A DNA stretch of 64,000 bases from Trypanosoma brucei (GCA_000002445.1 CP000066.1:1056001-1120000); one strand, 5' to 3'. Positions 10,235 to 48,458 are shown, numbered from the stretch's first letter. Notes: generated from the letters alone by a model not told the origin. Made by a program: numbers and translations.

Positions 10235-10507
10235 GATACCTACTGCACCTCTTTTAGTTGTTGCGACGCACGCCATTGCCGTTATTTTAGGCATGATGGC
10301 ATTGTTATTGTCGTTATAGTTCAACAGGAGAAACCTCTTCACCGTGAAGCGATGTTCCTCTTCTTTTTCCCTCTTAACATCGTCAGATTTTTTTTTTTTG
10401 CTCCGCATCACAATAGTGTTTAGGAAGTTTAGCCTCTCCATATTAATTGCTTGACGCAGTCAAACACGCGTTTGAACTTCTGGTGGGTAGAGGTGATAGG
10501 TCCACCG

Positions 10508-10527
10508 TCCTTTGTTTTTTTGCAGCC
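10508..10527 (+). promoter_or_regulatory. PolyY-AG trans-splice acceptor immediately upstream of the Sec16-like start codon
   Basis: cctttgtttttttgcag then ATG at 10556; the ORF-track N-terminus (from TTG 10451) translates this tract and is probably UTR. Confidence 0.5.
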
Positions 10528-10555
10528 TGTAGACAAACCCGTTGCTGCCACGATA

Positions 10556-13500
10556 ATGAATACAAACCGGCCGAACACATCTGGCGTTCCCTCTTCTTCC
10601 TCCACTGCCGGCCCCTTGGCTTTACGGAGCGGAAGCACCGCAGGGGTTGTTGGGGGAACTGACGCTGGTAGAAGCGGCAGCAGATCAATGGATTATAACC
10701 CGTTCTCTCTCATGGATGTTGGGACGGCGAAGATTGGGTTTGAACAATTCCATGGGGTGCCGTCGTCAATGCCGATGCAACAGCAACAGCGCGGGGTGCC
10801 AACAACAGCCACGTCCATGGGCTCTGCTGTTGACTGTCAGCTTCGCAAGTCTTCGGCAGGAACCCAACAAGGAGACCACTCATACTACCAGCAACAGCGG
10901 CAACCTTCTCTGTCCCAACCTCAACAGCGCACGAATCTTTCGCTGGATTTGGCGAGAGTCACCCAGTTGGCATCACAACGCAGCGGCTCAGCCATTACAA
11001 CCACACGACAAGATATCGTGACACCATCCTCCGCGAACCGCTCGGTTTCTCAGAGCTCTGCTCTGGATTTAAAAACCAGGGGGGGCTCTCTAGATACCGT
11101 CACGTCCATGCGCTCTGGAACAGATGGGGAGCCACATGGTAGAGTTGCGAAGCGTTCAGCAATCTTTAGTAACTTCCTCAAAAGGGATCCCCCAGACTTT
11201 TTGAAACCGTCGCCAAACACCTTACTGCGGCGACAAGGGTCAAGCACAGCGGTGACCGCACGTGGGCTTTTTGGTGACCAGTCTCGCTCTGGCAGCACCG
11301 CGACAAACCCAGACGCGCACGTGTCGCGTCCGCAACACCAGGAACAACTACTGGACCCCTCGCCATCGCAAGGGTACTCTCCAGGGTTTGTGCTCTACAC
11401 AGCGAGGGAAAGGGACCGCGTCAAACCTGCATTCTTCAGTCATTCTGCATTGACAGCTCGACCGAGTGCTGAGGATACTTCAACACGGTTTGTTTCATCT
11501 GAGCAGTGTGTTTCCCCCCTCCCGAGCAGCACGAATCAAGCGACAGCTTCGCACCTTCCCCAAGGACCCCCGCTGGGCGTGAACAACCCTGGGGCGACAG
11601 AGCCTCACTTTACTGACAGTGGAAGCGCCTCAACCGTTGTTTCAACGGCCACTGGGACGCATCTGCCCCATGGTTCAGATTCTGTTGTTTCTGCTCCGAA
11701 TGCACTCACCAGTGATTTTCATGTACCCCAAATGGACATAGCCGTGAGAGGTGTGTTGGGAGATACGAGGTTATCTAACGCCACGACATCGTCAGCATCA
11801 CAGAGTCTTGCCTACCTAACTCCAGGTGCTGAGGTTGCTGTCAGCGAAAATTATGCTGAGAAAAACAATATTCTGGTTAGCAGGCCACCTTCAGCTCCTC
11901 ATGCTCACATGCCGTTGCCGGCGGATCCGGGTGTGGGAAGCGTCCTCTCGGCGGACAACGTGGCCATGAATCGGGGTGATGCTCTGGGGCTGCCAATGCC
12001 GCAAGGCATCCCAAATGATGGGTTGAGTCCAAATGGAACCGAAGAAACGGCTTTGGCTCTTCCTCCTCCTCCTTTTCCTGGGTTTGGGCATCCCCATAAG
12101 GTATGCCCCGCTGCTGTTGTGCCTGCCGGTGATGACGTTGCTGCGCCTCATGTAACCTCCGCTACGCACGGCCTTGGTTTCCCGCCCACGGGCCGCCAAC
12201 GGCAGGAGCGGACGGAACACGATACACAGGCTTGTGTGTTTATCGACGGCTTTGACCCGAGCGAAGCCCCCCCAGCTGCGCCGTCCTATGGGGATGCCGT
12301 AGACGGTTCGTCTTCGCAAGAGTGGCACGATGGTTCGCTGCAGGACGCGGTTGCCACAGCGCCTTCTAATGTGGGGTCCGAGGCTTTGCTATTTGAGGGC
12401 CCAACTCAGGCAGGGGAAGTTGGTACTAACATGTGTCCCGTTGAAGAGGGGACATCTCCGGAAGCGCGGCTGCCGGCTTTAGATATGGCTGCTCTCCCTG
12501 TGTCCAGCCGCCGTGAAGGGAAAGGTTGGGGACAACAACATCGTCCACGTGGTGGAGCCCCGTGTTTTGCCGTATTTTCTCCTACGGGCTGTGTTATTGC
12601 AGTGTTTAACGCTCCCAATCCCTCCGTGAAGCCCAGGTTTGTATGCAGTCGTGTCGCGGACATACTTTCTGGGAAGGCGAAAGGTATGAACCCTTCCAAA
12701 GTGGGTGAAGACTATGTAACGACCCTTCGCGTTTCGGCTGCATTCACCCTTAGAAAAATCAATGAAAACAAAGTTCCACTGACGTCTCTCCGCGAAGCCG
12801 TCCAGCAAGTGCCCGACATCCTTCCGCTTCTAAGGGGCGTTTTGTCCTACGCGCTGCGTGACCCGTTGCCTGACTGGCGTAACGGTGGACAGAAGGAGCT
12901 TACCAAAATGCTCTCGGAGGTGGCTGAGCAGGTGCCCCCCTCCAGTGTGATGAACCCTATTCGGCTGTCCGACCCAAATTTGTTGAAGAGGGACCCGGAA
13001 CAGGGTCTGCGGGAGGTGCAACGGTTGTTGCTTATTGGAGAGCGTGAGGCTGCCGTGGGGGTGGCTATGGAGTTTCAGTTATACACGCATGCCATTATTA
13101 TTTCGATGGTGTGCCCCACCAAAGAGCAATACATGGATGTAATCCGTACCGTTGTTGAGAAAGAGTTAAGCCCCCTTTCACCTCTTGCTCACGCCTACTG
13201 TACGTTTAACGAGCTACCGCTTCCTGGATTCGCGAGTTCGCCAACATCTACGTTGCCCAGTGCACCGACGGGAGGGTGTGAGGTTTGCGTTCGGCAGTCC
13301 TGGGTGCAGCACGCGGCACTGTTTGTGTCTAACTTCACTAGGGAAAGTGCGGTGGGCTTGGTACAGCTGGGAGATGCCCTTGTAAAAGAAGGGTTGATTG
13401 ACGAGGCCTATTGTTGTTTTCTGCTCGCTCATCTTACTCCGATGGGAAATGTTGCCCCTCAGCAGCTACCACAACCCCAACAGCAGCACGTCATGAATCT

Positions 13501-14719
13501 TCTTCGTGTGCGACTTGGCGCATTGGGTGGGCACTGCCGTCCTGACGGTGTGCGTGTGGTTCTGACGCCGAAATTGCTGTTTCTAGCTGATGTTGTAGAC
13601 AACATTCGCTGTAACCTTGAAGTGTCTGCACAACCTGCAGCAACGGAAGGGGAGGGTTTAGTGATGCGTCACGGACTTCCCGCTCGCTCGCCTGCCAGCA
13701 AAGTTGTGTTCTGCTATTTGCAAATGTTATGGTTACAGGAGGTGGGTCTGCATGATATGGCGGATCCTTTCATGGCACACACACTCCGGATGGCACCGAC
13801 GTCATCCAAGAACTCGGCACCATTCACTTTGAACCGCCTGCTCGCCTCCGGACCCCCTGTCCCTGCGCCAGCCACTGCAACCGATGCTGCCGTCGCACCT
13901 GTCCCCATTCCCACCCCTGGTACGCCTCAGCCGAAAACGGCTCCACCAGCTCCTGGACTTCTAAACAAAGGGATCGGACCAAGGTTTGGTGCCCAGACGT
14001 CACAAAGAGTACTGCCGCGGATAGGACCAGACGGGTACCGTGTAACCACGATGCCCACTGCCCCGCAGACGTCGCCGCCGGTGCCAATGCTAGCAGGAGC
14101 GTTTACGCCCAACGCACCGGGAGGCGCCCAGACCGCAGGCTCGTCCATACCGCCACCGCCTGCCTCATTCCAGTCAAAAGTAGTGTCTACTGCGCCACCT
14201 CCTCCACCTCTTTCGTGCCAGGTGAAATCAGTCCCTGAAGGCGGTGCGGTAGAGAGTGAACCTACCAACCCGAACTCGGCCAGTTCCTCTTCCACTTCGT
14301 TCCCTGCTGCGCCACCCACTACCGCTCGCGGCCGTCCCGCTGAGCCTGGCCCAACTCAAGATCCCGGAAACAACGAGCGAACACAAGAGCCAACGAAGCA
14401 GCAGAGACAACAGCCGCCCCGCTCAGGCTCTCTTGGTGCCCTCGCCAGTTTCTTGTTCCGGCGCAGCGGCTCCAAAGACAACGAAGCGAAAAAGGACGAA
14501 CCAAAGAAGATGATCATTGACACTGAGAAGCCTCCTAAGTTTGACCCCACGAGGGGTTGCTATCTCTTTCCCGAGTCTGAAGAGGATAAGAAAGTGGCAG
14601 AGATGATCAAGGCGGGTCCTATGATGCGATTTTCCGTGAAGCAGCAAGCCCCGCAGGGACCGGTTAACCGCCGAATGCCCGTAAGGACGAAATATGTGGA
14701 CACATTTAACTCCTCCTGA
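10556..14719 (+). CDS. SEC16: Sec16-like COPII/ER-exit-site scaffold protein (Pro/Ser/Gln-rich, about 1387 aa)
   Basis: First ATG in frame at 10556. Central block 'LLIGEREAAVGVAMEFQLYTHAIIISMVCPTKEQYMDVIRTVVEKELSPLSPLAHAYCTF' resembles the Sec16 central conserved domain ('[57 protein letters not shown]'); long disordered P/S/Q-rich flanks typical of Sec16. Confidence 0.5.
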   Translation: MNTNRPNTSGVPSSSSTAGPLALRSGSTAGVVGGTDAGRSGSRSMDYNPFSLMDVGTAKIGFEQFHGVPSSMPMQQQQRGVPTTATSMGSAVDCQLRKSSAGTQQGDHSYYQQQRQPSLSQPQQRTNLSLDLARVTQLASQRSGSAITTTRQDIVTPSSANRSVSQSSALDLKTRGGSLDTVTSMRSGTDGEPHGRVAKRSAIFSNFLKRDPPDFLKPSPNTLLRRQGSSTAVTARGLFGDQSRSGSTATNPDAHVSRPQHQEQLLDPSPSQGYSPGFVLYTARERDRVKPAFFSHSALTARPSAEDTSTRFVSSEQCVSPLPSSTNQATASHLPQGPPLGVNNPGATEPHFTDSGSASTVVSTATGTHLPHGSDSVVSAPNALTSDFHVPQMDIAVRGVLGDTRLSNATTSSASQSLAYLTPGAEVAVSENYAEKNNILVSRPPSAPHAHMPLPADPGVGSVLSADNVAMNRGDALGLPMPQGIPNDGLSPNGTEETALALPPPPFPGFGHPHKVCPAAVVPAGDDVAAPHVTSATHGLGFPPTGRQRQERTEHDTQACVFIDGFDPSEAPPAAPSYGDAVDGSSSQEWHDGSLQDAVATAPSNVGSEALLFEGPTQAGEVGTNMCPVEEGTSPEARLPALDMAALPVSSRREGKGWGQQHRPRGGAPCFAVFSPTGCVIAVFNAPNPSVKPRFVCSRVADILSGKAKGMNPSKVGEDYVTTLRVSAAFTLRKINENKVPLTSLREAVQQVPDILPLLRGVLSYALRDPLPDWRNGGQKELTKMLSEVAEQVPPSSVMNPIRLSDPNLLKRDPEQGLREVQRLLLIGEREAAVGVAMEFQLYTHAIIISMVCPTKEQYMDVIRTVVEKELSPLSPLAHAYCTFNELPLPGFASSPTSTLPSAPTGGCEVCVRQSWVQHAALFVSNFTRESAVGLVQLGDALVKEGLIDEAYCCFLLAHLTPMGNVAPQQLPQPQQQHVMNLLRVRLGALGGHCRPDGVRVVLTPKLLFLADVVDNIRCNLEVSAQPAATEGEGLVMRHGLPARSPASKVVFCYLQMLWLQEVGLHDMADPFMAHTLRMAPTSSKNSAPFTLNRLLASGPPVPAPATATDAAVAPVPIPTPGTPQPKTAPPAPGLLNKGIGPRFGAQTSQRVLPRIGPDGYRVTTMPTAPQTSPPVPMLAGAFTPNAPGGAQTAGSSIPPPPASFQSKVVSTAPPPPPLSCQVKSVPEGGAVESEPTNPNSASSSSTSFPAAPPTTARGRPAEPGPTQDPGNNERTQEPTKQQRQQPPRSGSLGALASFLFRRSGSKDNEAKKDEPKKMIIDTEKPPKFDPTRGCYLFPESEEDKKVAEMIKAGPMMRFSVKQQAPQGPVNRRMPVRTKYVDTFNSS

Positions 14720-15343: not shown

Positions 15344-18300
15344 ATGATGGTGTGCCTTACAATTTTCCTTGATATCTCTTTCCGTATTTGTTTACCCGTT
15401 TTCAATGCGCACTACAGTAAAAGAAGGAAAGGGGGATCGGGGATGCCTATCCCAACGGTAACCATGGGGCCAGACCCGATTTCTGAGCCACTCCTGCATG
15501 ACGCCGACAGGGACGAGATTCCATTCTGTGTAGCTCGTAATATTGGGCGGGAAATGAGACGTGGGTCCAGCAGCGACAGCGGCAATCGTTGGAGACAGGT
15601 GGAACCCGTGTTGGAGTTACAGATTGAAACGCTCTCTACGACGTCAGCGGGGTGGTTTCTGAACTCGTGGTATGGCGCCCTTGTGGTGGCGCTTGTCCTG
15701 CAATCTTTGGTCTCTTTTCAGTGGGGGATGGTGAATATATGTGACAGCTCATCGGTAAGCATTCGCAACCTGGATTCGTGGAGAAGTTCTTGCGTGGAAA
15801 GGTACGAGTATCAGTCGGCTGACCTTAACTGTTCGGGGACTAAGGTTCTGGTGCAGGCATGTGATCCACCGCCACACTCTTCGCATCGTGCAATGCTCCC
15901 ATCTCTTCTAGGATGCGGAGCGGTACCGTTATCAGCACCATCTTACGCGGAGGACTCACCGGGCCCTAATCACGACGGGATGAGCATGCGGAGTGGAGGC
16001 TATATTCCAAAGCAACAACAGCAGCGTCTTTTCAACCTACGGTGGGTAGACCGAAACGTGATTGATATACCGGCAAGTAAGGCCAACCGCTTTCCGCGCG
16101 TCGTTTTCAGTTTAGCATCGCCGCAGGACGCTATTTCTGGAGATATTCCCTTTAAGACTTATCAGTTGCAGGTTGTTCTGGAAAAGTTTCCGGTGCATGC
16201 GCCTTCGGAAGGAGATATAAATGTTAACAGTGGTACCAGCCGGCCGGCAACCACTGGCGTGTACCGATACAACACAACAACCACGTGTTTTCGGACCACA
16301 CCACGATGCTCTTCAGTGGTGTTGCCGCAGGATGTCGTGGTGGTTGGCGGGAATTCGAGAATCACATTAACCATCATCGGTGCTGTGGAGGAGCTGGCGT
16401 CTGTCGCTTCCATGTCCTCTGTTGGTATTGCGTTTCAGCGTTCTTTCTACACCATCTTTACAATTGCATGTCGCTACACCCTCATTGTGATCTCCGGTGT
16501 TCATTTGATCTTCTTTCTTTACCGAATTCGGCGGACGCAGACAATCTATGAGCATTACTGGGTGACGGCCTTGAACGTGGCACTGATACTTTACCTTGAC
16601 CCATTTTTCGCCGCCGGAGTTGACGACGAAAACGGTGTAGAACTTTATCGCTTCTTTGAGTACCACATGCCGAATTATTTCATTGCCTTTTTGAACTGTT
16701 TTATTTTTGCGCTTGTTGGAGCCTCCATTAACGCTTCTGGGGAGGTAGGAGAGACTAAAAGGAGACTGAAGGGGGAAACCGTTCCAGGGTGTGACGCTCC
16801 TGTGCTTGAGGAACCGTCGCCTCGCCCGGGTCGGCCACTAGCGACCGTTCCTCCCGATATGCCTCCTTCTTCACCTGGTGGCGATCCAAGGGATTTGCAA
16901 CGAAAGGAAAAAAATTCATGGACAAGTGAGGCTCATGACAGTTCTGTATTACTTGCCTCCCCTGATGGGGATCGTGCGGCACTCGTGCGACGACGTGGTA
17001 TGCCTCTGTGGGTTACCGTTTCAATCACTTACTACTTCGTTATTCTCGTAGGTCTTGACGTGGGGAGGGCGTTCGTTGAGAATTGGGATTGGGGAACCGT
17101 TGCGGATTGTGCTACATTCTGTTGCCGTTACCTTGCGTCAATGTTCTACACAATGCTCCTGTTGCTTGTTTTTGCGTCGAACGTGCTACTTTTATGGCTC
17201 AAACGAAATCTGGGCAGACAGCCCTACCTAGAGACACGACCACGGCAGCTGGCATGCCGTGTGTTTATCTTCGTGTTTGCTAGTGCTATGGTCTATTTCG
17301 TTGTCCAGGCTGTTCTTATCGATCTACTCTACCCTCATATTGTGCGGATTGTCGTCTATCAGCCATTCAGTCAGCTCGCCCCCGTGATGGTTTCATCTTG
17401 CTTTGTGAGTCACATAACATTTGTGTACACACCCACCACTGCCTCACGGAGGGTGCCCATACGGCCAAACAACCCCATGTGGCGCCGTGTCGTTTGGTCA
17501 CGGCAGTGGTATCAGTGGCTTCAGTTTCACGGTGGCATATTGTACATATTTCACAACGAAGAGCAGGAACGATACTTCAACTTTTTACAGAACAAGCAGA
17601 GGTTGGCGAAAGTCCTTCACCGTCGGTCGGGTCGCGTCCCTGTCGCCACTGAGCACGAGGGTGTAGGGCCCATTTGCTCCACGGCAGAGTGTGTTTGGAA
17701 TGGTGACGGACCACTAGGGACATACGATGCGGAGAGCTCTGATAGTTCAGACTCCAGTGGCGGCGAAAGCAGCTTTTCTTATAATAGCAGTCACAATGAA
17801 GATGATGATGTTGCGTCAAGCGGACGTGGTTCGCGGCGTCGCAACTGGTCGCGCATTCGGAGGGGTGTTTCGACACTGTTCGAACGTGCGGAGTGTCGGT
17901 TCGTGGAGAAATCTGCTTTGCTTCTGGATTCTCTCGAGGGGGCCATTCTTGACCCTTTGCAGTCTCTCCAACTTGGTGGCAATAGGCGTGTGCCCTTTTT
18001 TAACCTCGAGGCCGCGATTGATTGCCTGAATCTGTCGTGGGAGGCATACGCACCTCTGTGTAGTGATGTAGATGCTTCGAGGCGAGATGCTGATGGCGGG
18101 GGGAATGGCACCTCATCTTATTGCGCTGACTGCACTCCCTGTGCGTTTCCCCCAGAGACAAGGGGAGAAGGCGATAGTGATAAAAGCACCTTAGACGAGC
18201 GGGCATTTTTAGAAGGGGCTGTGGACAGCAGTGCAGTGACGACCGTCGATAACAGGCCCATTGATGGTGATTTGCAATCTTTTACAGTTGCGAGGGAGGG

Positions 18301-19192
18301 GTCGTCCACCAGTGTGGGACCTGCTATGTGTACCAAACAATACGGTTATAAGCCAATCGCTGTGTTTGAGGCACTTGATGTAGTGGCTGTTTGTGCTGTC
18401 ATGGACACTGAATTTTTGCACCATCGTGGCAAGGTCCCTCGAATCGTTATCGCATTCCGAGGAACAGCAAATATGAGCAACGCCAGGGAGAACATTCGTG
18501 TTCGGCAGCGTCCGTGGCGGGAAGTAGACGGTGTCCGGCAGTGGTGGGGCCTCACGAAGCGTGCAAGAGTCCACTCGGGTTTCCTTAACATTTGGATCTC
18601 ACTGAAGCCTGCTGTGCTTCATACACTTCACAGGTTCTTAAAGGAGAATTCTTCCACTGTTTACCGTGTGTTTTGCACGGGCCACAGCATGGGGGGTGCT
18701 GTGGCTTGTCTTTGTGCCTACAGTGTGCGGCGTATGCTGCGGGAGATAGAATACCCCTTGGATGAGGTAACGGTTTACACGTTTGGTCAGCCCCCGATGG
18801 GGAACGCAGCGTTTCAAACCGCTTACGACAAGGCGATTCCCCGAACGTTTCGTGTTGTAAACGAGAGTGACGCGGTGTCCCTCTTTTCCCTGTTCGGGGG
18901 CACGCACGTTGGCACCGAAGTGGATATTGACCGCCATGGCAATTACATCTGTAAGCCCATGTTTATTGAGATGTTATTCAGACCCACGGGAGGGAAGGGA
19001 TTTGCTTTAAAAAATCATACCCTTGCTGCCTATGCCCAATCTCTTAATGCCGTTGCGGATCGGAACAGCGGTAGGGAGTGTAAGGTGCGCTGCCTGCAGC
19101 CGTATGTGCGTGATGTTGTAGACCCATCACTTAGCGCTCTTTCCAGTGCTGCCGCCAACGTCTCTGTTGAACACCAAGCTGCGAACGTGTAA
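15344..19192 (+). CDS. Polytopic membrane protein with C-terminal class-3 (fungal-type) lipase domain; DAGL-like architecture (paralog A)
   Basis: ATG 15344; 1282 aa; multiple TM helices in N-terminal half; C-terminal 'RIVIAFRGTANMSN', nucleophile elbow 'GHSMGGAVACLCAYSV' (GXSXG), 'VVNESDAVS', 'DRHGNYI' consistent with a Ser-Asp-His lipase_3 triad. Confidence 0.75.
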   Translation: MMVCLTIFLDISFRICLPVFNAHYSKRRKGGSGMPIPTVTMGPDPISEPLLHDADRDEIPFCVARNIGREMRRGSSSDSGNRWRQVEPVLELQIETLSTTSAGWFLNSWYGALVVALVLQSLVSFQWGMVNICDSSSVSIRNLDSWRSSCVERYEYQSADLNCSGTKVLVQACDPPPHSSHRAMLPSLLGCGAVPLSAPSYAEDSPGPNHDGMSMRSGGYIPKQQQQRLFNLRWVDRNVIDIPASKANRFPRVVFSLASPQDAISGDIPFKTYQLQVVLEKFPVHAPSEGDINVNSGTSRPATTGVYRYNTTTTCFRTTPRCSSVVLPQDVVVVGGNSRITLTIIGAVEELASVASMSSVGIAFQRSFYTIFTIACRYTLIVISGVHLIFFLYRIRRTQTIYEHYWVTALNVALILYLDPFFAAGVDDENGVELYRFFEYHMPNYFIAFLNCFIFALVGASINASGEVGETKRRLKGETVPGCDAPVLEEPSPRPGRPLATVPPDMPPSSPGGDPRDLQRKEKNSWTSEAHDSSVLLASPDGDRAALVRRRGMPLWVTVSITYYFVILVGLDVGRAFVENWDWGTVADCATFCCRYLASMFYTMLLLLVFASNVLLLWLKRNLGRQPYLETRPRQLACRVFIFVFASAMVYFVVQAVLIDLLYPHIVRIVVYQPFSQLAPVMVSSCFVSHITFVYTPTTASRRVPIRPNNPMWRRVVWSRQWYQWLQFHGGILYIFHNEEQERYFNFLQNKQRLAKVLHRRSGRVPVATEHEGVGPICSTAECVWNGDGPLGTYDAESSDSSDSSGGESSFSYNSSHNEDDDVASSGRGSRRRNWSRIRRGVSTLFERAECRFVEKSALLLDSLEGAILDPLQSLQLGGNRRVPFFNLEAAIDCLNLSWEAYAPLCSDVDASRRDADGGGNGTSSYCADCTPCAFPPETRGEGDSDKSTLDERAFLEGAVDSSAVTTVDNRPIDGDLQSFTVAREGSSTSVGPAMCTKQYGYKPIAVFEALDVVAVCAVMDTEFLHHRGKVPRIVIAFRGTANMSNARENIRVRQRPWREVDGVRQWWGLTKRARVHSGFLNIWISLKPAVLHTLHRFLKENSSTVYRVFCTGHSMGGAVACLCAYSVRRMLREIEYPLDEVTVYTFGQPPMGNAAFQTAYDKAIPRTFRVVNESDAVSLFSLFGGTHVGTEVDIDRHGNYICKPMFIEMLFRPTGGKGFALKNHTLAAYAQSLNAVADRNSGRECKVRCLQPYVRDVVDPSLSALSSAAANVSVEHQAANV

Positions 19193-20013
19193 CCAAACAG
19201 TGTATGTGAGACTTGAATTTTGGAAATATCGTATACCTTTCTTTCATAGTCGGTTTTGTGTTCACGAAAAAAAAAAACCGCTTCGTTTACTTCTTCCTTT
19301 ACTGTTGTCTATGTGCACGCATGTTGACTCACCTATAATCTGAGAGGCAGCGCGAGCAAGAGACAGACATGAGACGGTGCAGTTGTTCAAGTACCATTCA
19401 TGGGTTTGGTGGATGATGGGGATGCGGGGTCGCTCTCCACATCGTGTCGTGGGGGAGGGGGAGGGCATTTATTGGTCGGGAGAGTTCGAGAGGTGTCGAC
19501 GGTTATTGCTCCATCTTTGTGTGTGTGCACACTTGCGTATGCAGTCCCTTTTTGCCTTCATTTCGCTCTTTTGATGTCTCGTATTAGCTGTGGACGCGCG
19601 ATGCCGTGGGATCTTATGCGTGATCTCTCTGCTTAGACCGCACTTTACGATTTGGCAGCTCTCTCTTGTTGTTTTCCCTCCTTTCTCTATTTTCCTGTTT
19701 GCCGGTCATTTTTGTCAACCTCCCAACCAAAGCCTGACCACCGGGTGGTGCAGTGCCGTTGGCTGTAAACGTGACTTTGAGTGCAAAAGAGACCTATCTG
19801 TTTCCCCCCTTTACCCAAGTTAAAAAGAGTTGTTTCTTGCACTATCCGACTGTTATTCGTGCCTGTGTTTCCTTCCTGTGCCCCCTTCTTTCGCTCCAGC
19901 TGTCCCATTTACCCCCATCACTTGTGGCATTCAAAACAAAGCAGTGACGCCAACGACACCGACGAAAAACAAACAGGCGTAAAGGGACTTTTGCATTCGG
20001 TCAAGTACTGAGG

Positions 20014-20036
20014 TTTGTTTTTTTTTTCTTCCGGAG
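20014..20036 (+). promoter_or_regulatory. PolyY-AG tract 35 bp upstream of lipase-domain gene B start
   Basis: tttgtttttttttttcttccggag preceding ATG 20071. Confidence 0.4.
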
Positions 20037-20070
20037 ACGGAACTCAGAAGGGAGGCCAGAGCCCATCGAG

Positions 20071-23000
20071 ATGGAGAGGAGACAGGCGGGCGGGAATTTG
20101 CTGGACTCTATGAATTCTGCATCAGTGCACGTGAACGACCTTCCAGCTGAGTTCCCCCGTTTTCCACCGCAAACAATTAGCACGGGCGTTGCTTCTCAGA
20201 GTCACCGCAAAAAGTCACCGGCTTCGGGACCCCCGATGAACGGGAGTCATTCTTTTTCTCGTCATACAAACACAGGAACTGTACCTGCCATACCGCGCGC
20301 CCCACGGCGGTGCCGACTTACAAACAACGCACCATTCCCGGACCCCGCCTGCGTGGACTGCCAAAGGCATAGCTGCTCAAGACATTCAGGCGGCAGCACG
20401 TTGGCGGGGGGAGTGGAGCTGCAGATTGAAGGGCTTACGCGCTTCGTTTGGCGGTGTATTTACTTTTTATGGTTGGCAGCCCTTGTCGCCGGTATAGTTT
20501 TGCAATCCTTGCCCTCTATTACATGGAGGGTGCTGGACATCTGTGGAAGGGATGCGCCTGATATGTGGAAATATGGGACATGGAATAGCAACTGTGCGAC
20601 CATAGAGCTGGAGGACAGACACACCGATACCTACCGTGTTCAGTGGAATGGGCGACCATATTCTGTGGACTTTGGTGACCCGTTGCTGCGGTTCCGTAGC
20701 CTCGTAATTAACCTGGCCAGTCCTGACGACTGGGAGGTTTTCCATCCTGACGAGCGCAGGTTCACACTGAGGGTTGCGATTCCCTTTATGGAGGAGAACA
20801 GCAACTGGTCTACTGCCCCGTTGCCGATAGTGTGCCGTCGTGGGGACGATCGATGCGTTTACATAAACCTGCCGCCGGGTGCGGTTTTGAATGACACTGG
20901 TGGAGGACGCGTGTCTCTATCTCTTAGCGATGTCCCCGGAAGTATCGCTCGAAATATAAATAACTCAGCGGTTGGTATCCTTTTTCAAGGGCGTGCTTAC
21001 GCCCTTACAGTGTTGATTTGGCGCTACATAGCCCTTACAATAACGGTTTTGCATGCTATACGGTTCGTAGTGAACCTGAAATACAACAACAGCCTCTATG
21101 AACAGTGGTGGGTTTTGGTGCTGCTGTTGGCGTCTGTGTTGTATCTCAACCCCCTCACCGCCCTTGCCATATCTCCAGATCGGCTTCCACTGCCGCTGGA
21201 GTTCCTTGAACTTCACGTACCATGGTGGTTTGTAGCGGTGGTGGTGAGCTATATGTTTTCTGTTATTACTGCGTCCATGCCGCGCGCTGCGAATCCCACG
21301 AAACAGGAAGGCGCTAAAAACCTGGGATGCCTTAGCCGCATGAAGGCCTGCTTCTGCCGCAGCCGCAGCATATATGACCCTCCGTTGTGGACGAAGGTAG
21401 TGGGAGTGCTTTTTATCATTATAGCCATTGGGCTTGACATAGCAGTGGCCTGGCGGTGCTGCTCTGCAACGCTACATGGGAGGGGGTCGGGTAAGAAAAT
21501 CTACATTTACCTTCTCTGTTCTCTTTTCGGCTTTGGGTCGCTGGTCTGTTGTATTATGCTCTACCGTCTACGTCGGAGCATGTCAAAGAAATCATACCTG
21601 GATTCGAGACCTCAGCAACTTGCCTGCCGTGTTTTCATGTTTATGTTCTTTACGGCCATCATTTTCAGTATTACACAATTCGCTCTGTTTTACGTGCTCG
21701 ATTTCAGAATCCCGGGTATGTTGGCGTGGCAACCACTTATACAGCTACCGGCGTTGTTGGTATGGCCAGTTTTGGTCAATGTCATGACTCTAATATACAC
21801 TACCCGTCACCGCCCAGAGACGGTTCCCGTTCATCCGCGAGACACGCGCTGGAAAGAAAGTGTCTGGCCTGACGATTGGTACCGATGGCTTGTTCGCCAT
21901 GGCGGCAGCATGTACATTTTTCATACAGAGAAGGAGGAGGCCTCCTTCAATTGGAAACAACTGGAGTACCGCGTACGGCGGTACCTTGTGAGGTTAAAGA
22001 GAAGGGGTAGTGTGCATAACTTATCTCTCCTTCTGCAGAGCATACCCAATGACTCTTCATCTCCACCGGTTGAGGGGCCGAGTGACCCCTCGATAAATTA
22101 TACCATTATGTGCTCCGTTCACTCCCGTCCCCAGGATATAGAGTTCTGGAAGGGTCTGAGAGAGTCGATTTGTAATCGAGGCGCAGCCGAGATTGTCAAC
22201 ATGGACATGACGTCCACGTGCTTCCTACCGTACGTTGAAGCAGGGAGGGAAAACGATTTGGGGCCCGAGAGACCGTCAGGCGCATCCCAAGTGATGAGAC
22301 AAAATGTTGGCAGGGAAGGAGGTGGGTCCCGAGCTCCGCTGCTAGAAAACGATGGGGGAGCTCTCAACGGTTCCGTGGCGTTGAGGTTGAGCTCCACCAC
22401 CGGGGATGCACCTCCCGGTGACGGGGAGCGTCGTCTGGGGTCTGTGGATGATCATTCAGAGGATAGCGGCGACGATGGAGGGTCAACTAATAACCCAAAG
22501 AGTGTGTGGCAAGCACTCCGTGGTGTAATTTCCGCGTCGGTGAGGGGAGCCGGGAGGAACTTATTCGAACGACCTGCTCATGCGTTTGAGCGTGCCGAAA
22601 CCTATCTTTTGGATGCTGTTCAGCAAAGGATGCACGAACCCCTGTACCTCCCGTTTTTCAATCTTGAGACAGCCATTGACTGCTTCAACATAGCGTTTGA
22701 ATCGTACAATTGGAAGGGACAGTCGCACGCCCGGGCCCAAGAAAGAAAGGTTGGAACCTCGGGCCGCTGCCGCGGCTCTTCAAACTACCGTTCAAATGCT
22801 CGCGAATCCGCTGCTTACCCCCGGGAAACGGACCCAGACGCGTGCAGCACGTCGCAAGGTGATGTTGAGATGCGCAAATTTTGCCCTAGTACAGAACAAC
22901 AGTCTGTGGCAGCCACTCCAGACCATAACGGGACGCCCACTATCGATGTGGAACAATACGGTTATAAGCCAATCGCTGTGTTTGAGGCACTTGATGTAGT

Positions 23001-23769
23001 GGCTGTTTGTGCTGTCATGGACACTGAATTTTTGCACCATCGTGGCAAGGCCCCTCGAATCGTTATCGCATTCCGAGGAACAGCAAATATGAGCAACGTG
23101 AGGGAGGACATCAAGATGCGCCGCCGTGCTTGGGATGAAATGAAGACCGATAGGGACAATGCGTCTCTGAAGTCGAGTTGCTGCTGGGAACCAACGGTCC
23201 ACTCCGGATTTTTGGAGATCTGGGAAGCACACCAAACTTCTATTGAAGAAAAACTTGGCGGGTTCTTAAAGGACAATTCTTCCACTGTTTACCGTGTGTT
23301 TTGCACGGGCCACAGCATGGGGGGTGCTGTGGCTTGTCTTTGTGCCTACAGTGTGCGGCGTATGCTGCGGGAGATAGAATACCCCTTGGATGAGGTAACG
23401 GTTTACACGTTTGGTCAGCCCCCGATGGGGAACGCAGCGTTTCAAACCGCTTACGACAAGGCGATTCCCCGAACGTTTCGTGTTGTAAACGAGAGTGACA
23501 CATTTGCAACGTTCCGGCTTTACGGCACGCAAGTTGGCACCGAAGTGGATATTAACCGCCATGGCAATTACATCTGTAAGCCCACGTATATGGAGCAACG
23601 GTGCCACCCAATGAAGAATAAGGTGTTTGGAATCGAGGGCCATCAGGTGAAGTCTTATGCCCGCTCGCTCAATGCCTTGGCGCTCGACACATCCTGCAAG
23701 ATACGTGCTTCCGGCGATCCAGAGGCGTCATATGTGGCCGAGCCTGGACGCGAGCCGGATGCCATGTAA
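20071..23769 (+). CDS. Polytopic membrane protein with C-terminal class-3 lipase domain (paralog B, tandem to A)
   Basis: ATG 20071; 1232 aa; same architecture; C-terminal region shares 100%-identical nucleotide blocks with paralog A (e.g. 23261-23499 = 18633-18871); 'GHSMGGAVACLCAYSV' present. Confidence 0.75.
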   Translation: MERRQAGGNLLDSMNSASVHVNDLPAEFPRFPPQTISTGVASQSHRKKSPASGPPMNGSHSFSRHTNTGTVPAIPRAPRRCRLTNNAPFPDPACVDCQRHSCSRHSGGSTLAGGVELQIEGLTRFVWRCIYFLWLAALVAGIVLQSLPSITWRVLDICGRDAPDMWKYGTWNSNCATIELEDRHTDTYRVQWNGRPYSVDFGDPLLRFRSLVINLASPDDWEVFHPDERRFTLRVAIPFMEENSNWSTAPLPIVCRRGDDRCVYINLPPGAVLNDTGGGRVSLSLSDVPGSIARNINNSAVGILFQGRAYALTVLIWRYIALTITVLHAIRFVVNLKYNNSLYEQWWVLVLLLASVLYLNPLTALAISPDRLPLPLEFLELHVPWWFVAVVVSYMFSVITASMPRAANPTKQEGAKNLGCLSRMKACFCRSRSIYDPPLWTKVVGVLFIIIAIGLDIAVAWRCCSATLHGRGSGKKIYIYLLCSLFGFGSLVCCIMLYRLRRSMSKKSYLDSRPQQLACRVFMFMFFTAIIFSITQFALFYVLDFRIPGMLAWQPLIQLPALLVWPVLVNVMTLIYTTRHRPETVPVHPRDTRWKESVWPDDWYRWLVRHGGSMYIFHTEKEEASFNWKQLEYRVRRYLVRLKRRGSVHNLSLLLQSIPNDSSSPPVEGPSDPSINYTIMCSVHSRPQDIEFWKGLRESICNRGAAEIVNMDMTSTCFLPYVEAGRENDLGPERPSGASQVMRQNVGREGGGSRAPLLENDGGALNGSVALRLSSTTGDAPPGDGERRLGSVDDHSEDSGDDGGSTNNPKSVWQALRGVISASVRGAGRNLFERPAHAFERAETYLLDAVQQRMHEPLYLPFFNLETAIDCFNIAFESYNWKGQSHARAQERKVGTSGRCRGSSNYRSNARESAAYPRETDPDACSTSQGDVEMRKFCPSTEQQSVAATPDHNGTPTIDVEQYGYKPIAVFEALDVVAVCAVMDTEFLHHRGKAPRIVIAFRGTANMSNVREDIKMRRRAWDEMKTDRDNASLKSSCCWEPTVHSGFLEIWEAHQTSIEEKLGGFLKDNSSTVYRVFCTGHSMGGAVACLCAYSVRRMLREIEYPLDEVTVYTFGQPPMGNAAFQTAYDKAIPRTFRVVNESDTFATFRLYGTQVGTEVDINRHGNYICKPTYMEQRCHPMKNKVFGIEGHQVKSYARSLNALALDTSCKIRASGDPEASYVAEPGREPDAM

Positions 23770-28018: not shown

Positions 28019-29884
28019 ATGAAGCGCATCCCCGTAAAGGACCTTGCCGTCAACGTTCTGAAGCTCCCTCGATTGCCCATTCCCACACTTGAGGCAACAG
28101 CGGAGCGGTACCGCGCATCCATATGGCCACTGAAGTCCGCCGAGATGGTGAAAAATCACTTGCAGAAGTTTGATACCTTTCTTACTTCCTCCGCTGGGGG
28201 CTTGCAGGCGGCACTTGTGGAGGCAGATACCGCTGCTGCCGCATGTGGCGTATACCCGTATTCGTATATTGAGGCCTTGTGGGAAGACATGTATTTGAGC
28301 AATCGTGAACCCGTATTAGTGAATGTCAACCCCGCCATCACCACCAAGAAACTAAAGAATGCGGGTGATACGCAAGCGGCTGTCGGGGCGGCTGTCGTAC
28401 ACAGCATTGCGCGGTGGGTGTATAACGCCGTGAACAAGGGAGTAGAGGTATTTGACGAAACACGCGATGTGTCCCCGCTACTGCGGCAGTTTGGAGCTTC
28501 GGTCATTCCAGGTGAGAAGAAGGATACGTTTCACACCACACCGATGGAGAAACTTCGTCACATCATTGTGCTTCACGACGGCCACCCGTATGCAGTGCGC
28601 GTGTTTGACGACAAGCAGGTCCCTCTTGACCGTGCGGTGGTCCAAAAGTCAATTGAGTACGTTCTGTCAATCACGCCAGATGCAGACAACACAACACCCG
28701 TGTCAGTTCTTACGGCGGGGAACCGCCAGACTTGGGCAGGCGCTTATGCCGAGTTGGTGAAAACACCGGAGAACGCGGAGAACCTCAAAAAGATTCAAGA
28801 GGGCATTGTGGTTGTTTGCCTCGACACTGAGAGTTGGGGAGGTGACGGCAAATTAGTGGACGGTGCTTCCCTGCACGGCAACAACACGGAGTTTGAGAAC
28901 CGATGGTACGACAAGCATCAAATTATTGTATCTGCAGATGGGCGGGTCGCATTCAACTTCGAGCATTCCGGCAGCGACGGCGTTCAGTGGCTCCGGTGGA
29001 TCAGTGATATTATCAGTGATGTTGAGGGAGGTGATGGAAGTTCTGTTTCCACCTCTGCCACCAGCTTGGATCCTGCGAAGGTTGGCACCTTGGTTCAGCC
29101 CTTGACCTTGACGTTTGGGAAGACATTCGCTGCCCACATTCGCGCGGCACGCGCCGGGGCTCTCGAGCTCATTGCTGGAACGGCGTTGGAAGACGTGACC
29201 ATTCCGTATGGCAAAACTCAGTTGAAGCAGCTTGGTGTGAGCCCCGATGCGTTTGTGCAGATGTGCCTTCAGGTGGCCCACCACAAATGTCGGAATAAAC
29301 TCGCACCAACGTATGAGGCGGCCTCCACCGGTCGTTTCTTTCATGGGCGTACTGAGACGATTCGGTCAGCGACTCGGGAAATGCAGCTCGTGGCGGAGGC
29401 CGTCAACCGTATGACGAAGGCTAATGCCGCATCCGATGAGGAGGGAAGTACAACATATGTGGCGAGTGTTGAGGAGCAGGTGGCACTGCTAAAGGCGGCT
29501 GCAGAGCGTCATGTGAGGTTGGCGAAGGCAGCGGCGAATGGTGAAGGCATCGATCGGCACTTGACAGCTCTGAAGCGGCTGGCAGTTGAGCGCAATGATG
29601 CCGCAGCGCTCGCTTTCTTCAACGACGAAACGTACACTTCGTGCTCCACGTGGAGATTAAGTACAAGTAATTTAACAGCGCCGTGGGTAGAGCGATTCAT
29701 GTTTGGTCCTGTAACCGCTAACGGCTACGGTTTAGGTTACACCATTGATGGAACGGAGGTGCGGCTGACAGTGTCGGCTTTCACCAGAAGCCCATCCACC
29801 GACGCGGGGGATATGAAGCTCGCCGTTTCTGAGGCCGCATCAAATGTTTACGGTTTGCTTAAGGCAGGGACTAAACTAAAATAG
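28019..29884 (+). CDS. Carnitine/choline O-acyltransferase family protein
   Basis: ATG 28019; 621 aa; family-typical N-terminus 'LPRLPIPTLEATAERY' and catalytic-His motif 'NFEHSGSDG' (EHSxxDG); overall carnitine acyltransferase-like length. Confidence 0.85.
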   Translation: MKRIPVKDLAVNVLKLPRLPIPTLEATAERYRASIWPLKSAEMVKNHLQKFDTFLTSSAGGLQAALVEADTAAAACGVYPYSYIEALWEDMYLSNREPVLVNVNPAITTKKLKNAGDTQAAVGAAVVHSIARWVYNAVNKGVEVFDETRDVSPLLRQFGASVIPGEKKDTFHTTPMEKLRHIIVLHDGHPYAVRVFDDKQVPLDRAVVQKSIEYVLSITPDADNTTPVSVLTAGNRQTWAGAYAELVKTPENAENLKKIQEGIVVVCLDTESWGGDGKLVDGASLHGNNTEFENRWYDKHQIIVSADGRVAFNFEHSGSDGVQWLRWISDIISDVEGGDGSSVSTSATSLDPAKVGTLVQPLTLTFGKTFAAHIRAARAGALELIAGTALEDVTIPYGKTQLKQLGVSPDAFVQMCLQVAHHKCRNKLAPTYEAASTGRFFHGRTETIRSATREMQLVAEAVNRMTKANAASDEEGSTTYVASVEEQVALLKAAAERHVRLAKAAANGEGIDRHLTALKRLAVERNDAAALAFFNDETYTSCSTWRLSTSNLTAPWVERFMFGPVTANGYGLGYTIDGTEVRLTVSAFTRSPSTDAGDMKLAVSEAASNVYGLLKAGTKLK

Positions 29885-37377: not shown

Positions 37378-40300
37378 TGTTTTGTACAGATGGTTAACGC
37401 GTATTATGTGTATTTGTTTTGTTTCCTTCTTTTTATTTTGCTCATGTCAGTTTATTTATTCTTTTTTTCCCCCCTCCCCCTTCCATTCTCCCTTTTTTTT
37501 TCTGTTGTTGGTATTCTTTTAATTGGTCCAACTTTTTTTCTCGTCCGCCATGTGTGTGTGTGTGTGTGTATGTGTGTTTTGTTTTTGTTTTTGTCTCCAC
37601 TGTATTTTGTATTTTCCTTCCTTCCTTCACCACACTTCTTTTTTTTTTTGTTGTCGACCACTATCTGTATTTATTTTATATCCTCATGTGTTTGTGCTTT
37701 TGCTTTGTTGTATATCCTAATATATATATATATATATAATATACGTTAACTTTATTATTATTATTATTTTACGTTATTTATTTATTATCCTCCGATTGAG
37801 CTCGTGTCTTCCCGTTTCTCTGTATTTACACATTCTTCTTTTTTTTTTCCCCCTTTCCCTCTCCTTTGCGGTTACACTTGTGTTTATTTGCTTCATTTAT
37901 TTATTCGGTTTATTTTCTCCTGGTTCGCACGTGTACTGTTTTTCTTTTTTTTTTCTTTTTTCTTCCTGTTGTGTCCCATCAGGGGGAAAATAAATTCAAT
38001 CTTATATTTTGTATTTGACTACTCTTCCCTTCTTTTTGAGTTTTTGTTTTTCTCAAATTTCTTATTTTAAAAAAAAAAGAAATAAAAAAAACAAATCTCT
38101 TTTTTTTTTTTTTGATACGTTTTTATCTCCGTGTTTATTCTTCATTTCCCAATTATTTGCTTTCCTCGGTTGTCACGGCGGTCCGCCGTCCCCTTTTTAT
38201 TTATTTGTTTTTTTCTTTTTCTTATAGACACGACTTATATTTGTGAATATATATATATATTTTTACACCTTCCTCTTGTTCTTTAGTCATTTATTTACTA
38301 TTAACTAATTAATTTCACTTTCTTTTGTTTAATTATTTTTTTAAATTTTATTTGTAGTTATTATTCCAATAAATATATAATATAAATAAATGCTTGAAGG
38401 AACTGAAGTGTGTCCAAGTGGAGACTTGTTTTTGTTTTTTTAATAAAAAGAGAAGAAGATATAGAAAGTAAAGGGATGAAACAAGAGGAAAAAAAAGGGG
38501 GAAAAGTAATGAAAGTTCCTTTTATTTTCATAATAATATATTTATATATATATATATATATTTATTTATTTATATATTTATGTATTGTTTGTTTTGTTTA
38601 TTTAATGGCAAACTTCACGTGTGCGTATGCGTGTAACGGGAGGGAAAACCAAAAAAGAGTGAAAAGGAAATATTTCTCCGTTTGTTTGTTTGTTTGTTTT
38701 TTGAGTTTCTGGTTTTAAAAGAAAAAAAGTAATACAAAACAAAATAAAGCAAAATAGCGAAATGACGAAATAAATGACATTTGTACGAAAGTCATGATAT
38801 TAATAAATATATATAATTAATCACTTCTAATGCCTGGTTTCCACCGTTATTATTATTATTATTATTATTATTGTTTCGATTGTTATGTTTCTTCCTTCCT
38901 TCTATTTTGTTTGTTTGTTCGTTTGTGTTCCGACTCAAATGAAGCGGGAGGGAAAACAACACAACACAAGACAAAACATAACGAAAAAAAAATGAAATGA
39001 AATAAAGTAAAGTAAAAGTATCGGAATCAAATGAGTTAAAACGCTGGGAGAATTAAAATGATTGAGCGAAAAGAGTAAAGGAAGAATATATATATATATA
39101 TATAGAAGGAGGAATAATGCATAAAGGAATTATGAGGTGGGGAATAAATAAATAAATAAATAAATAAATAAATGAGTGAATAAATGAATTATTGAGGGAA
39201 ATGTGGACACTACTCAGTTCATTTCCGTAACGATTCCGCGCACCTTTTTAATTTTATTATATTATTATTTATGTTGTTATTATTACTATTTTTATTATCG
39301 TTGCTTTCGTGATGCGGTCCTCTCTTCATTTCCCCTTCTTTTTTTCTCAAATAATAGTTATTTGTTGTTGTTGTTGTTTTTGCCTGTCCCCGTGTTCTTT
39401 CTTCTTGTTTCTTTTAAAAAATTTTATTCACCATTATATTAAAATTAAAATTATTATTATTATTATTGTAATATCATTATTTATTCGGTGTCTTGTTATG
39501 TCCCTCTCCCCGAAAAATAAATAATAAAAAGAAAAATAAATTAATATTTCAAATTCACGGCACTCGGAAGCGGAGGAGAAAAAGGAAATAAACAAACGAT
39601 AACAATAATAGAAAGAATAGAAATAATCAAAAATAAATTATTCATATTTATTTATTTATTCATTCATGTTAAATAATGACGAGAAGAAGTTGAAAATAAA
39701 AAAAAAATAAAACAAAAAAAAGAAAAAAGTAGAAGTAAATGAAAGGAAAACAAAAGACCGAAGTGATTTGTTTTATCTTATTTAGGGTGCTTTAAAACAT
39801 TTGGCCGACAAATACAATACGTGAAGTTATTTTCTCTTCTTTTTATTATATTTATTTTGCCTGAACCTTATTTGTTATTTAATCGCCCTTCTTTTTTCTT
39901 TTTTGTTTTTTGTTGTTGATAGCTCCTCTGAAATGAAAGAAAAAAAAACAAGATAAAAAAAAAGAAACATATATATATATATATATATATGAGCGGAAAT
40001 GTATGTTTTTTTTTTTTTTTTGGGGGGGGGTGTGTGAGGGAAAGTTTTCCCTTTCTTTCCTTTTTATTTTCTTTTCACAGTTGTTCCTCCTCACTCAAAA
40101 ACAAAACAACAACAACAAAAAAAAAAAACAGCTACTATTACTACTGCTAATTGTGTCACCATTTATTTCCTGCTATTATAATTGTTAAATGCTTCCGTTA
40201 TTATTATTGTTTTTATTATTATTGATATTAATATTATTGATTTTGTTATGGTTGAACTCCCTTAAGTACATGTGCTTCTCTTCATTTTCCCCCTCTTTTC

Positions 40301-41681
40301 TTCTCTTCTCTTTTCTTTTTTTTTTTCTTTCCTTTAAAAAAAAAAAATCATTTGTTTTGTTTTCTTCTTTACATATCAGCGAAGGAATTACAATAAATTA
40401 AACAGCAGCAGCGACATTTCCGTCCAGAGTTAAAAACAAAAAACAAAAACAAAACAACAACAAAGAAGGAAACTGAAGGAAGGAAGTGATCGAATTAAAG
40501 AAAGAAAAGGCAAAGGCAAAAACAAAACAAATAAAATAGTGCGAAAAGAAAGGGAAGGAAAGTGGAAAGGCAGAGAGAAAGAAAAAAAAAAGAACAAAAA
40601 AAAAAGGGAAAGAAGAGAGAGAGAGAGAGAAGAAAATAAATAAATAAAAGCGAAAGGGGAAAAGGGAATTCATTTACTTGTATTTGTACTTGTGTATTTA
40701 TAAGTAAATACAAAAGAAGAAAAAGGACCAAAAAAAAAAAAGATACAACAACAGCAGCACCCCCCCCCACACACACAAAAAAAAAAGAAGCGGAATAACA
40801 CGGACACACACAAAAGTGAAAGTGAGCGTGTCACGTGAGAAGCAACAAAAAAAAAAAGAAGAGCAAAAGGAGGGTCGGATAAGTCCTTGGGTGATTTTTT
40901 TTTTTTTTTTAAAGGAGAAAAAAGGTGCGGAAAAAAAAAAAGAAAATTAAAACAAAGGGTACGAGGCGCACTTTACCGGGCCACATTGCTTTTTTTTTTT
41001 TTCAATACCATATTTTGGTTGGTTGGTTGTTGTTGTTTTGTCTTGTGTTTCTTTTGCTCTTAAAGGGTGAGTGTAGTTGACACAACTGCAAACACAAGAA
41101 GGGAGAAGAAATAACATATACGCATTTAATAAAGGGAGACAAATACAGCAACCACCACAAAATAGCTGAAAAGGTTGCAAAGGAAGAGAGAGAGAGAGAG
41201 AAAAAAAAAACACCAACACCAACAACAACAACAACAACAAACGATCTGAGAAGTGACTGAAATCACTCGCAGCGGTTTTTGAGCGTGAGTGAACTTCACA
41301 ATACAGGCGAGAGGCAGCCGCACAGCCTCCTTTCACCCTTCACTCACGAGGGTTCCGTGAGGCAGTTAAGGAGCGTGACGAATTAATAAAAAAAAGAAAC
41401 AAGAAAAAAAAAAGAAGAGGAGGAGAAACAGCAACATCAGGTGATATAGCTGTGGGACTGTGAAGAGGAGGTTTCACACACAAGAGGGAGTGTGGTACCA
41501 AAACTATACATACAGATAAAAGCAAGTGCGCATAACCTTCAAGGGAATACGAGAGGGCGTTGTTTGTGTATTTGTTTGCGTTTTTGCGTGTGAGTTTGCG
41601 TGTGTGTGTGTCTGAGAGAGAATAGTAAAAAACAACAACAACAACAACAGCAACAAACAAACCCCAACTGCAGGGTGAGTC
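37378..41681. repeat. 4.3 kb ORF-free AT-rich low-complexity/microsatellite span (probable long 3' UTR/intergenic region)
   Basis: Homopolymer A/T runs, (TA)n, (AAAT)n 39144-39172, (TTA)n 38845-38872, (GA)n 40612-40632, (AAC)n 41220-41250; only short F/L/K-rich ORFs translating low complexity. Confidence 0.7.
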
Positions 41682-44361: not shown

Positions 44362-44392
<31 letters not shown>

Positions 44393-47870: not shown

Positions 47871-47906
<36 letters not shown>

Positions 47907-48089
47907 GTGTTCGCTGCTTTTCCCTCCCAAACCGTAACGCCGTGTGTCATGTAAACAAGTGATTTTTGTTGTTTCCTTTTTTTCTTTTTCTTTTCCTTTT
48001 TTATTTTATTTTAATTTGATTAATTCTTCCTTTCTTTCCTATCAAAAACAAAACAAAACAGAAAATAAATAAAAACACATATACACATA

Positions 48090-48102
<13 letters not shown>

Positions 48103-48146
<44 letters not shown>
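48103..48146. repeat. (CA)n dinucleotide microsatellite, about 22 units
   Basis: acacacacac... read directly. Confidence 0.9.

Positions 48147-48148
<2 letters not shown>

Positions 48149-48404: not shown

Positions 48405-48408
<4 letters not shown>

Positions 48409-48455: not shown

Positions 48456-48458
<3 letters not shown>

Follow-up and report, generated by a model that had tools for sequence, protein, structure and literature searches.

Wntless (WLS), TMEM181, and TMEM87A have been placed in one group of seven-transmembrane proteins that carry a GOLD domain (GOST proteins), and in WLS and TMEM87A a membrane-facing slot is present and a phospholipid is bound in the cavity of the seven-transmembrane (7TM) bundle (PMC9711517). 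The diacylglycerol lipases (DAGLs) alpha and beta have four N-terminal transmembrane (TM) segments, which are followed by the catalytic domain (PMC2173631, PMC9205912). A 64,000-nucleotide stretch of the Trypanosoma brucei genome (GCA_000002445.1 CP000066.1:1056001-1120000), referred to below as the window and used for all coordinates, contains two tandem genes, here called paralog A and paralog B, that an original prediction made from the DNA sequence had likened to the DAGLs, describing them as a polytopic N-terminal membrane domain fused to a cytosolic class-3 lipase. Paralog A (15344..19192, + strand) encodes 1,282 amino acids (aa) and is annotated as "lipase, putative" (Q57WC2/XP_843978), and paralog B (20071..23769, + strand) encodes 1,232 aa and is annotated as "lipase domain protein, putative" (Q57WC3/XP_843979). 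It is highly probable that each polypeptide has a two-module anatomy, in which a GOST-type membrane module is joined to a class-3 lipase.

An open reading frame (ORF) scan of the window recovered both genes as uninterrupted ORFs on the + strand, at exactly the coordinates that the original prediction had assigned to them. Paralog A is 100% identical to the "lipase, putative" protein of T. brucei brucei TREU927, in line with the kinetoplastid source assumed in the original prediction. The two proteins share 49% identity across the C-terminal 473 aa and 30 to 33% across the membrane half, and on these alignments they are paralogs.

Membrane module and lipase domain

The N-terminal half of each protein is supported as a GOST unit of the TMEM181/Wntless type, the single-sequence Pfam matches being marginal. 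Hydropathy profiles contain 1 + 7 TM segments, TM1 being followed by a large loop; all eight are clear in paralog B, and in paralog A seven rise above the threshold, with TM3 below it. The AlphaFold2 (AF2) model of paralog B residues 113 to 642, built from a 22-sequence alignment (pLDDT, 82; pTM, 0.82), consists of an N-terminal helix, a beta domain, seven TM helices, which bring the total to eight, and C-terminal helices. Hydropathy and this model bear out the polytopic N-terminal half that was originally proposed, and the model contains each element of the GOST fold, namely, an N-terminal TM helix, a lumenal GOLD beta-sandwich, and a seven-TM bundle. When it was used as the query in a Foldseek search of the PDB, the top four matches were all human Wntless, aligned over the full length, its lumenal domain included, with E values of 4e-10 to 4e-9, followed by TMEM87A and then by G protein-coupled receptors (GPCRs). 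Profile comparisons lead to TMEM181-like proteins. With hhalign, a profile of six trypanosome sequences matched seven stand-alone TMEM181-like proteins at 98.7% (E value, 3e-16), and a profile of 19 members of the fusion family matched TMEM181-like proteins at 99.6% (E value, 1e-23) over 435 columns, extending from TM1 to TM8. Diphylleia, Rhizamoeba, and other organisms have short homologs of ~450 to 500 aa, which are stand-alone TMEM181_GOLD plus WLS-like_TM proteins with E values of 1e-40 to 1e-60. The WLS-like_TM family (PF06664) matches paralog A with 30.4 bits, against a cut-off of 28.3, over aa 368 to 460 only; it is found at an E value of ≤0.01 in 14 of the 22 sequences of the alignment, 11 of which are fusion members, and the Entosiphon and Diplonema members match it across the full model length, at subthreshold scores. 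The T. brucei proteins do not reach the Pfam threshold for TMEM181_GOLD.

In paralog A, TM1 (aa 105 to 130; 15656..15733, + strand) was placed by hydropathy and aligns with TM1 of paralog B and of the TMEM181-like proteins. It is followed by a lumenal GOLD-like domain (aa 131 to 370; 15734..16453, + strand), which was delimited by profile comparison with TMEM181-like proteins and carries the conserved Cys315 and Cys322 and two N-glycosylation sequons, and by the seven-TM bundle (aa 371 to 697; 16454..17434, + strand), which was delimited by the WLS-like_TM match, hydropathy, and the alignment with paralog B. The corresponding parts of paralog B, all on the + strand, are TM1 (aa 124 to 145; 20440..20505; helix 12-33 of the AF2 model), a GOLD-like lumenal beta domain (aa 146 to 307; 20506..20991; AF2 beta strands 40-194) with the conserved Cys255 and Cys262 and three sequons, and the seven-TM bundle (aa 308 to 576; 20992..21798). 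In addition, paralog A contains a Pro/Ser-rich insert of ~85 aa (aa 466 to 552; 16739-16999) in the cytosolic TM4-TM5 loop, which paralog B lacks; the insert is present in the Trypanosoma orthologs of paralog A, where it is poorly conserved.

The module is homologous over its whole length, with TM1, the GOLD domain, and the 7TM bundle all included, to the TMEM181-type GOST proteins, and the invariant positions common to both are the GOLD cysteines 255 and 262, R318, E344, P361, R513, and Y576 (paralog B numbering). The stand-alone proteins, of ~450 to 500 aa, stop shortly past TM8, whereas the euglenozoan proteins continue with a conserved juxtamembrane segment, a long linker, and the class-3 lipase. 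Wntless (WLS/GPR177; human structures 7KC4, 7DRT, and 8TZS) has the same topology of eight TM segments with a lumenal beta domain and belongs to the Pfam family WLS-like_TM, which paralog A matches marginally, but its sequence identity with the T. brucei module is ~10%, with no match at the profile level, and it has no enzymatic domain.

The C-terminal half is a predicted class-3 lipase in both proteins, with a complete Ser-Asp-His triad and an oxyanion motif. A Pfam search, the check that had been proposed along with the original prediction, matched both proteins to Lipase_3 (PF01764), with 96.5 bits for paralog A (17858..19123, + strand; E value, 1.7e-27) and 92.3 bits for paralog B (22516..23766, + strand; E value, 3.3e-26), against a cut-off of 22. 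In paralog A, the domain begins with an N-terminal helix (PFFNLEAAIDCLNLSWEAY), followed by a variable insert of ~95 aa and then by the catalytic core from aa 999. Rhizomucor miehei lipase was a PDB match, with an E value of 3e-11 for the single sequence and 2e-18 for a six-sequence profile. The motif strings listed in the original prediction were all located in both proteins, starting at aa 1113 in paralog A and 1080 in paralog B for GHSMGG, 1033 and 996 for RIVIAFRGT, 1171 and 1138 for VVNESD, and 1197 and 1163 for RHGN.

Residues of the active site were assigned in an alignment of 41 sequences comprising the two T. brucei proteins, six distant family members, 32 unrelated class-3 lipases, and R. 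miehei lipase, the last of which gave the expected S144/D203/H257 numbering. In paralog A, the nucleophile Ser1115 (GHSMGG; 18686..18688, + strand) lies in a column that is invariant in all 41 sequences and corresponds to R. miehei S144. The triad Asp1176 (18869..18871, + strand), which had been placed correctly in VVNESD, is likewise invariant (41/41) and corresponds to D203, and two PDB searches, one with the single sequence and one with the profile, independently align this Asp and the Ser with R. miehei lipase. The triad His had been sought in DRHGN, but that residue (H1198) is a His in only 10 of the 41 sequences and aligns with R. miehei N227; the His that corresponds to H257 is His1225 (KNHTLAAY; 19016..19018, + strand), which is conserved in 39 sequences, the two others being truncated. 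The Asp and His that complete the triad, the absence of which had been named as grounds for refuting the original prediction, are thus both conserved. The alignment places the triad of paralog B (+ strand) at Ser1082 (23314-23316), Asp1143 (23497-23499), and His1191 (EGHQVKSY; 23641-23643). In the oxyanion motif RG[ST], contained in RIVIAFRGT, the Arg and the Gly are each present in 40 of the 41 sequences, and the third position is Thr in 37 and Ser in 3. The corrected His assignment is what a mutagenesis study of the active site would need. Fungal and plant class-3 lipases (R. miehei lipase, plant "lipase-like" proteins, and PLA1) share the catalytic core, the triad, the oxyanion motif, and the Asp-to-His spacing, which is 49 residues here and 54 in R. 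miehei lipase, but they are soluble or secreted proteins of ~270 to 420 aa, whereas the T. brucei domain has the variable ~95-aa insert and a GOST tether.

Topology, distribution, and history of the fusion

The lipase is predicted to face the cytosol, with both termini on that side (N-in, C-in), from the even number of TM segments, the positive-inside rule, and the topology of WLS. The cytosolic loops contain 1, 7, 1, and 7 Lys plus Arg residues and the short lumenal loops contain 1, 1, and 1, and the sequons and the two family-invariant cysteines all fall within the predicted lumenal domain. The cytosolic lipase of the original prediction therefore keeps its place, given eight TM helices arranged as in Wntless. 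Between the membrane module and the lipase, both proteins have a conserved cytosolic juxtamembrane segment. In paralog A (17435..17626, + strand), the invariant columns read VPIRPxNPxWRxVVWSxxWYxWLxxHGGxLYIFxNExxE, and in paralog B (aa 577 to 642; 21799..21996, + strand), the segment forms the helices after TM8 in the AF2 model. Its consensus is VPxHPxDxRWKxxVWPxxWYxWLxxHGGSxYIFxSExEE. This segment (…WYxWLxxHGGSxYIF…) is specific to the fusion family, being absent in the stand-alone TMEM181-like proteins, and ranks with the best-conserved regions of the entire protein across the span of euglenids to trypanosomes; it may be a docking or coupling element for the lipase. The S/D-rich stretch that was originally noted as separating the two halves is part of a poorly conserved, acidic, and Ser-rich linker, which is probably disordered. 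In paralog A, the linker (17627..17857, + strand) is not conserved among orthologs and contains SSDSSDSSGGESS at aa 798 to 810 (nt 17735-17773), a sequence found only in this paralog; in paralog B, the variable linker (aa 643 to 815; 21997..22515, + strand) has no conservation with paralog A or with orthologs.

A smaller homolog search gave six matches with the full protein and two with the N-terminal profile, and an exhaustive search was hence made, in which the N-terminal module, profiled on six trypanosome sequences, was compared with 1.84 billion representative proteins. This search yielded 81 homologs of the module. Nearly every homolog longer than 800 aa carries a C-terminal lipase with GHS[LM]G[GA], as detected with a local hidden Markov model of the lipase half, and the fusion recurs in >55 independent representatives from genomes and transcriptomes. 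Pfam Lipase_3 was confirmed in prokinetoplastid, diplonemid, and euglenid members. The named members belong to Trypanosoma, Leishmania, Phytomonas, Lotmaria, Papus, Apiculatamorpha, Lacrimia, Artemidia, Diplonema, and Entosiphon, all of which are euglenozoans (kinetoplastids, diplonemids, and one euglenid), and from this distribution the fusion is judged to be ancient. Two uncharacterized "putative lipases" are recast here as large multipass proteins conserved from euglenids to Leishmania. In a neighbor-joining tree of the membrane module, the sequences formed two paralog clades; each clade contains both Trypanosoma and Leishmania, and the duplication is therefore older than the trypanosomatid radiation. 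The T. congolense ortholog of paralog A appears split into a 992-aa model of the membrane module and a 282-aa lipase-only model (TCIL3000_3_2480); the split probably reflects a break in the assembly or the annotation and not a true gene fission.

In the T. brucei pair, the catalytic cores contain two tracts that are identical or nearly so, both on the + strand. The first (18647..18871 in paralog A and 23275-23499 in paralog B) extends over 225 nt, from the nucleophile elbow through the triad Asp, without a mismatch, and the second (18336..18482 and 22952-23098), which encodes QYGYKPIAVFE...RIVIAFRGT, extends over 147 nt with one mismatch. Both tracts are confined to the catalytic core of the lipase, and the sequence flanking them is ~57 to 73% identical. 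Since the duplication predates the trypanosomatids, tracts of such identity point to recent gene conversion, which indicates that the tandem catalytic cores of T. brucei are being homogenized. As a consequence of the conversion, paralog B is drawn towards the paralog A clade in the lipase tree. The gene pair is a clear-cut case in which gene conversion is limited to the catalytic core. GHSMGG is also present in T. vivax paralog B.

Proposed function and competing explanations

We propose that each protein is an endomembrane-tethered acyl-ester hydrolase facing the cytosol, which would act on glycerolipids in the cytosolic leaflet. If other class-3 lipases are a guide, cleavage would occur at the sn-1 position, as in a phospholipase A1, a diacylglycerol (DAG) lipase, or a triacylglycerol lipase. 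The GOST module would set the location, presumably in the endomembrane system as for other GOST proteins, and, because lipids have access to the 7TM cavity of its relatives, which also carry a GOLD domain in the lumen, it may link lipase activity to cargo or to a ligand in the lumen or the membrane. This tethered-hydrolase mechanism is put forward tentatively, its chances falling a little short of even; anatomy and mechanism taken together form the best overall explanation, which we consider moderately probable. GOST proteins beyond Wntless are poorly understood, and a lineage-wide fusion of a TMEM181-type module with an intact lipase provides a functional clue that points to lipid handling or lipid-coupled trafficking and can be tested in a genetically tractable parasite.

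Several results weigh against this explanation. Paralog B by itself has no Pfam WLS-like_TM match, and the profile of the membrane module matched nothing among PDB sequences at an E value below 1; for these reasons, the link to Wntless itself is taken as structural and the TMEM181-type link as based on profiles. AF2 modeling of the lipase half from six sequences gave no confident fold (pLDDT, 42); the triad His was assigned by alignment because this model was poor, and in it H1225 stands just before a predicted helix. A literature search returned no enzymatic, localization, or phenotype report for the pair, the sole mention being a transcript (PMC2771046). In addition, the GOST module could be just an anchor, as a sensing or regulatory role is suggested by its relatives alone.

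The DAGL comparison of the original prediction would make the pair the kinetoplastid counterparts of metazoan sn-1 DAGL alpha and beta, which are membrane-anchored DAG lipases that make signaling monoacylglycerols. The two groups share the Lipase_3 family and, like the T. brucei pair as predicted here, the DAGLs have a cytosolic N terminus and a cytosolic catalytic domain behind a polytopic anchor (PMC2173631); the T. brucei proteins also have variable loops and linkers, possibly regulatory. The membrane architecture, however, is different, since the anchor of the DAGLs consists of four TM segments and no large lumenal domain is present, and the T. brucei proteins have eight TM segments with a lumenal GOLD domain of ~160 to 240 aa that is homologous, together with the 7TM bundle, to that of TMEM181/WLS. 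The claim that the pair resembles DAGLs far more than soluble fungal-type lipases is also not supported, as the 49-aa Asp-to-His spacing is near the fungal value, too short to accommodate a large regulatory loop there, and no large insert is present. In one word-seeded search, the nearest named lipase relatives outside Euglenozoa were soluble plant, oomycete, ciliate, and bacterial class-3 lipases, and no DAGL-named protein was among the 32 lipase-domain homologs, a comparison with DAGLs that was by name only. We reject a DAGL ortholog on the basis of membrane architecture, with the catalytic domains being set apart by names and spacing only; the DAGL parallel survives as a loose analogy, and a DAGL-type identity for the pair is unlikely.

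An alternative to the tethered hydrolase is that the GOST module serves in trafficking as Wntless does, chaperoning a lumenal or secreted protein that is lipid modified, plausibly a GPI-anchored one, with the lipase remodeling the membrane or signaling occupancy. WLS is the best match to the fold, conserved cysteines and sequons are present in the lumenal domain, and it has been proposed that GOST proteins carry lipidated cargo, the GOLD domain and the membrane-open cavity working jointly (PMC9711517). Against such a cargo receptor, the profile detects no sequence similarity to WLS proper, and, of the structured parts, the lumenal domain shows the lowest conservation between the two paralogs. 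Kinetoplastids are also not known to have Wnt, which is the client of Wntless. We give this alternative little credence. Mis-joined gene models, or a dead enzyme of the kind seen in plant EDS1 and PAD4, would explain the split T. congolense models and the presence of EDS1 and PAD4 among the weak PDB matches, but both ORFs are unbroken in the window, the fusion is conserved in >55 independent representatives, and the Ser, Asp, His, and oxyanion motif are invariant or nearly so across the family; neither separate mature mRNAs for the two halves nor orthologs that have lost triad residues were seen. An artifact is rejected on the conservation of the fusion and a pseudoenzyme on that of the triad, and it is very improbable that either accounts for the pair.

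The fusion might also help to decipher the orphan TMEM181 branch, in the manner of a Rosetta stone; the cavity and the GOLD domain would form a single unit with the lipase, sense or present a membrane lipid or lipid-anchored lumenal cargo, such as, perhaps, GPI-anchored proteins in trypanosomes, and thereby switch the acyl hydrolase in the cytosol. The orphan human TMEM181 has been linked to sensitivity to the Escherichia coli CDT toxin. If this speculative idea, which we regard as improbable, were true, stand-alone TMEM181-type proteins elsewhere in eukaryotes would partner with separate Lipase_3 enzymes; the Lipase_3 enzymes known in animals are essentially the DAGLs. Fusions of 7TM modules with enzymes are known in protists, such as GPCR-PIPK and the oomycete "GPCR-bigrams". 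Their design is similar, with an N-terminal seven-helix receptor-like module and a cytosolic lipid-modifying or signaling enzyme, but here the 7TM class is GOST, in which a GOLD domain and an additional TM1 are present, the enzyme is Lipase_3, and the lineage is Euglenozoa. A GOST module that serves as the membrane part of an enzyme is a variant on known kinds. No paper discussing a Wntless/TMEM181-like plus lipase fusion was found in literature searched by architecture, family names, and UniProt/RefSeq accessions. The architecture is already recorded by annotation pipelines, with both Pfam domains named, for example, in a Leishmania product name, and the pair is not a new enzyme class.

Gene models and neighboring genes

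Paralog B is probably Tb927.3.3870, the gene identifier being taken from the product name in PMC2771046. In the microarray table of that study, the transcript of Tb927.3.3870 ("lipase domain protein") is 3.1-fold up in cultured bloodstream forms compared with procyclic forms (PMC2771046). A second identifier, Tb927.3.2480, guessed via T. congolense TCIL3000_3_2480, was wrong, as Tb927.3.2480 is TbArv1. The first 33 codons of paralog A (15344-15442) encode a hydrophobic, nonconserved peptide, MMVCLTIFLDISFRICLPVF..., and the T. equiperdum model of paralog A, at 1,249 aa, is 33 aa shorter and lacks this N-terminal peptide. The true start of paralog A may be M34, at position 15443.

The gene pair lies within a run of genes on the same strand, with a Sec16 homolog on one side and further genes, including a carnitine/choline acyltransferase. 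Because this layout is the usual polycistronic one of kinetoplastids, the neighbors say little about function. The upstream ORF (10451-14719, + strand; 1,422 aa from a TTG codon) contains the Sec23-binding domain of Sec16 (Pfam TPR_Sec16; E value, 1.6e-14) and probably encodes the endoplasmic reticulum (ER)-exit-site protein Sec16. A full-length choline/carnitine O-acyltransferase (28019-29884, + strand; Pfam E value, 3e-145) is located ~4 kb downstream of the pair; a further gene of lipid metabolism is thereby found in the same transcription unit, probably by chance in view of kinetoplastid gene organization. Scans of the window revealed no tandem repeats with a score of ≥200 and no Rfam families. 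Three AT-rich stretches (~38000-41600, 44000-51500, and 56000-58000) have a GC content of 25 to 31%, compared with ~50% elsewhere, and contain no ORF of ≥200 aa. These stretches flank the RRM-protein genes at 35851 and 41682 and may be very long untranslated regions or intergenic regions.

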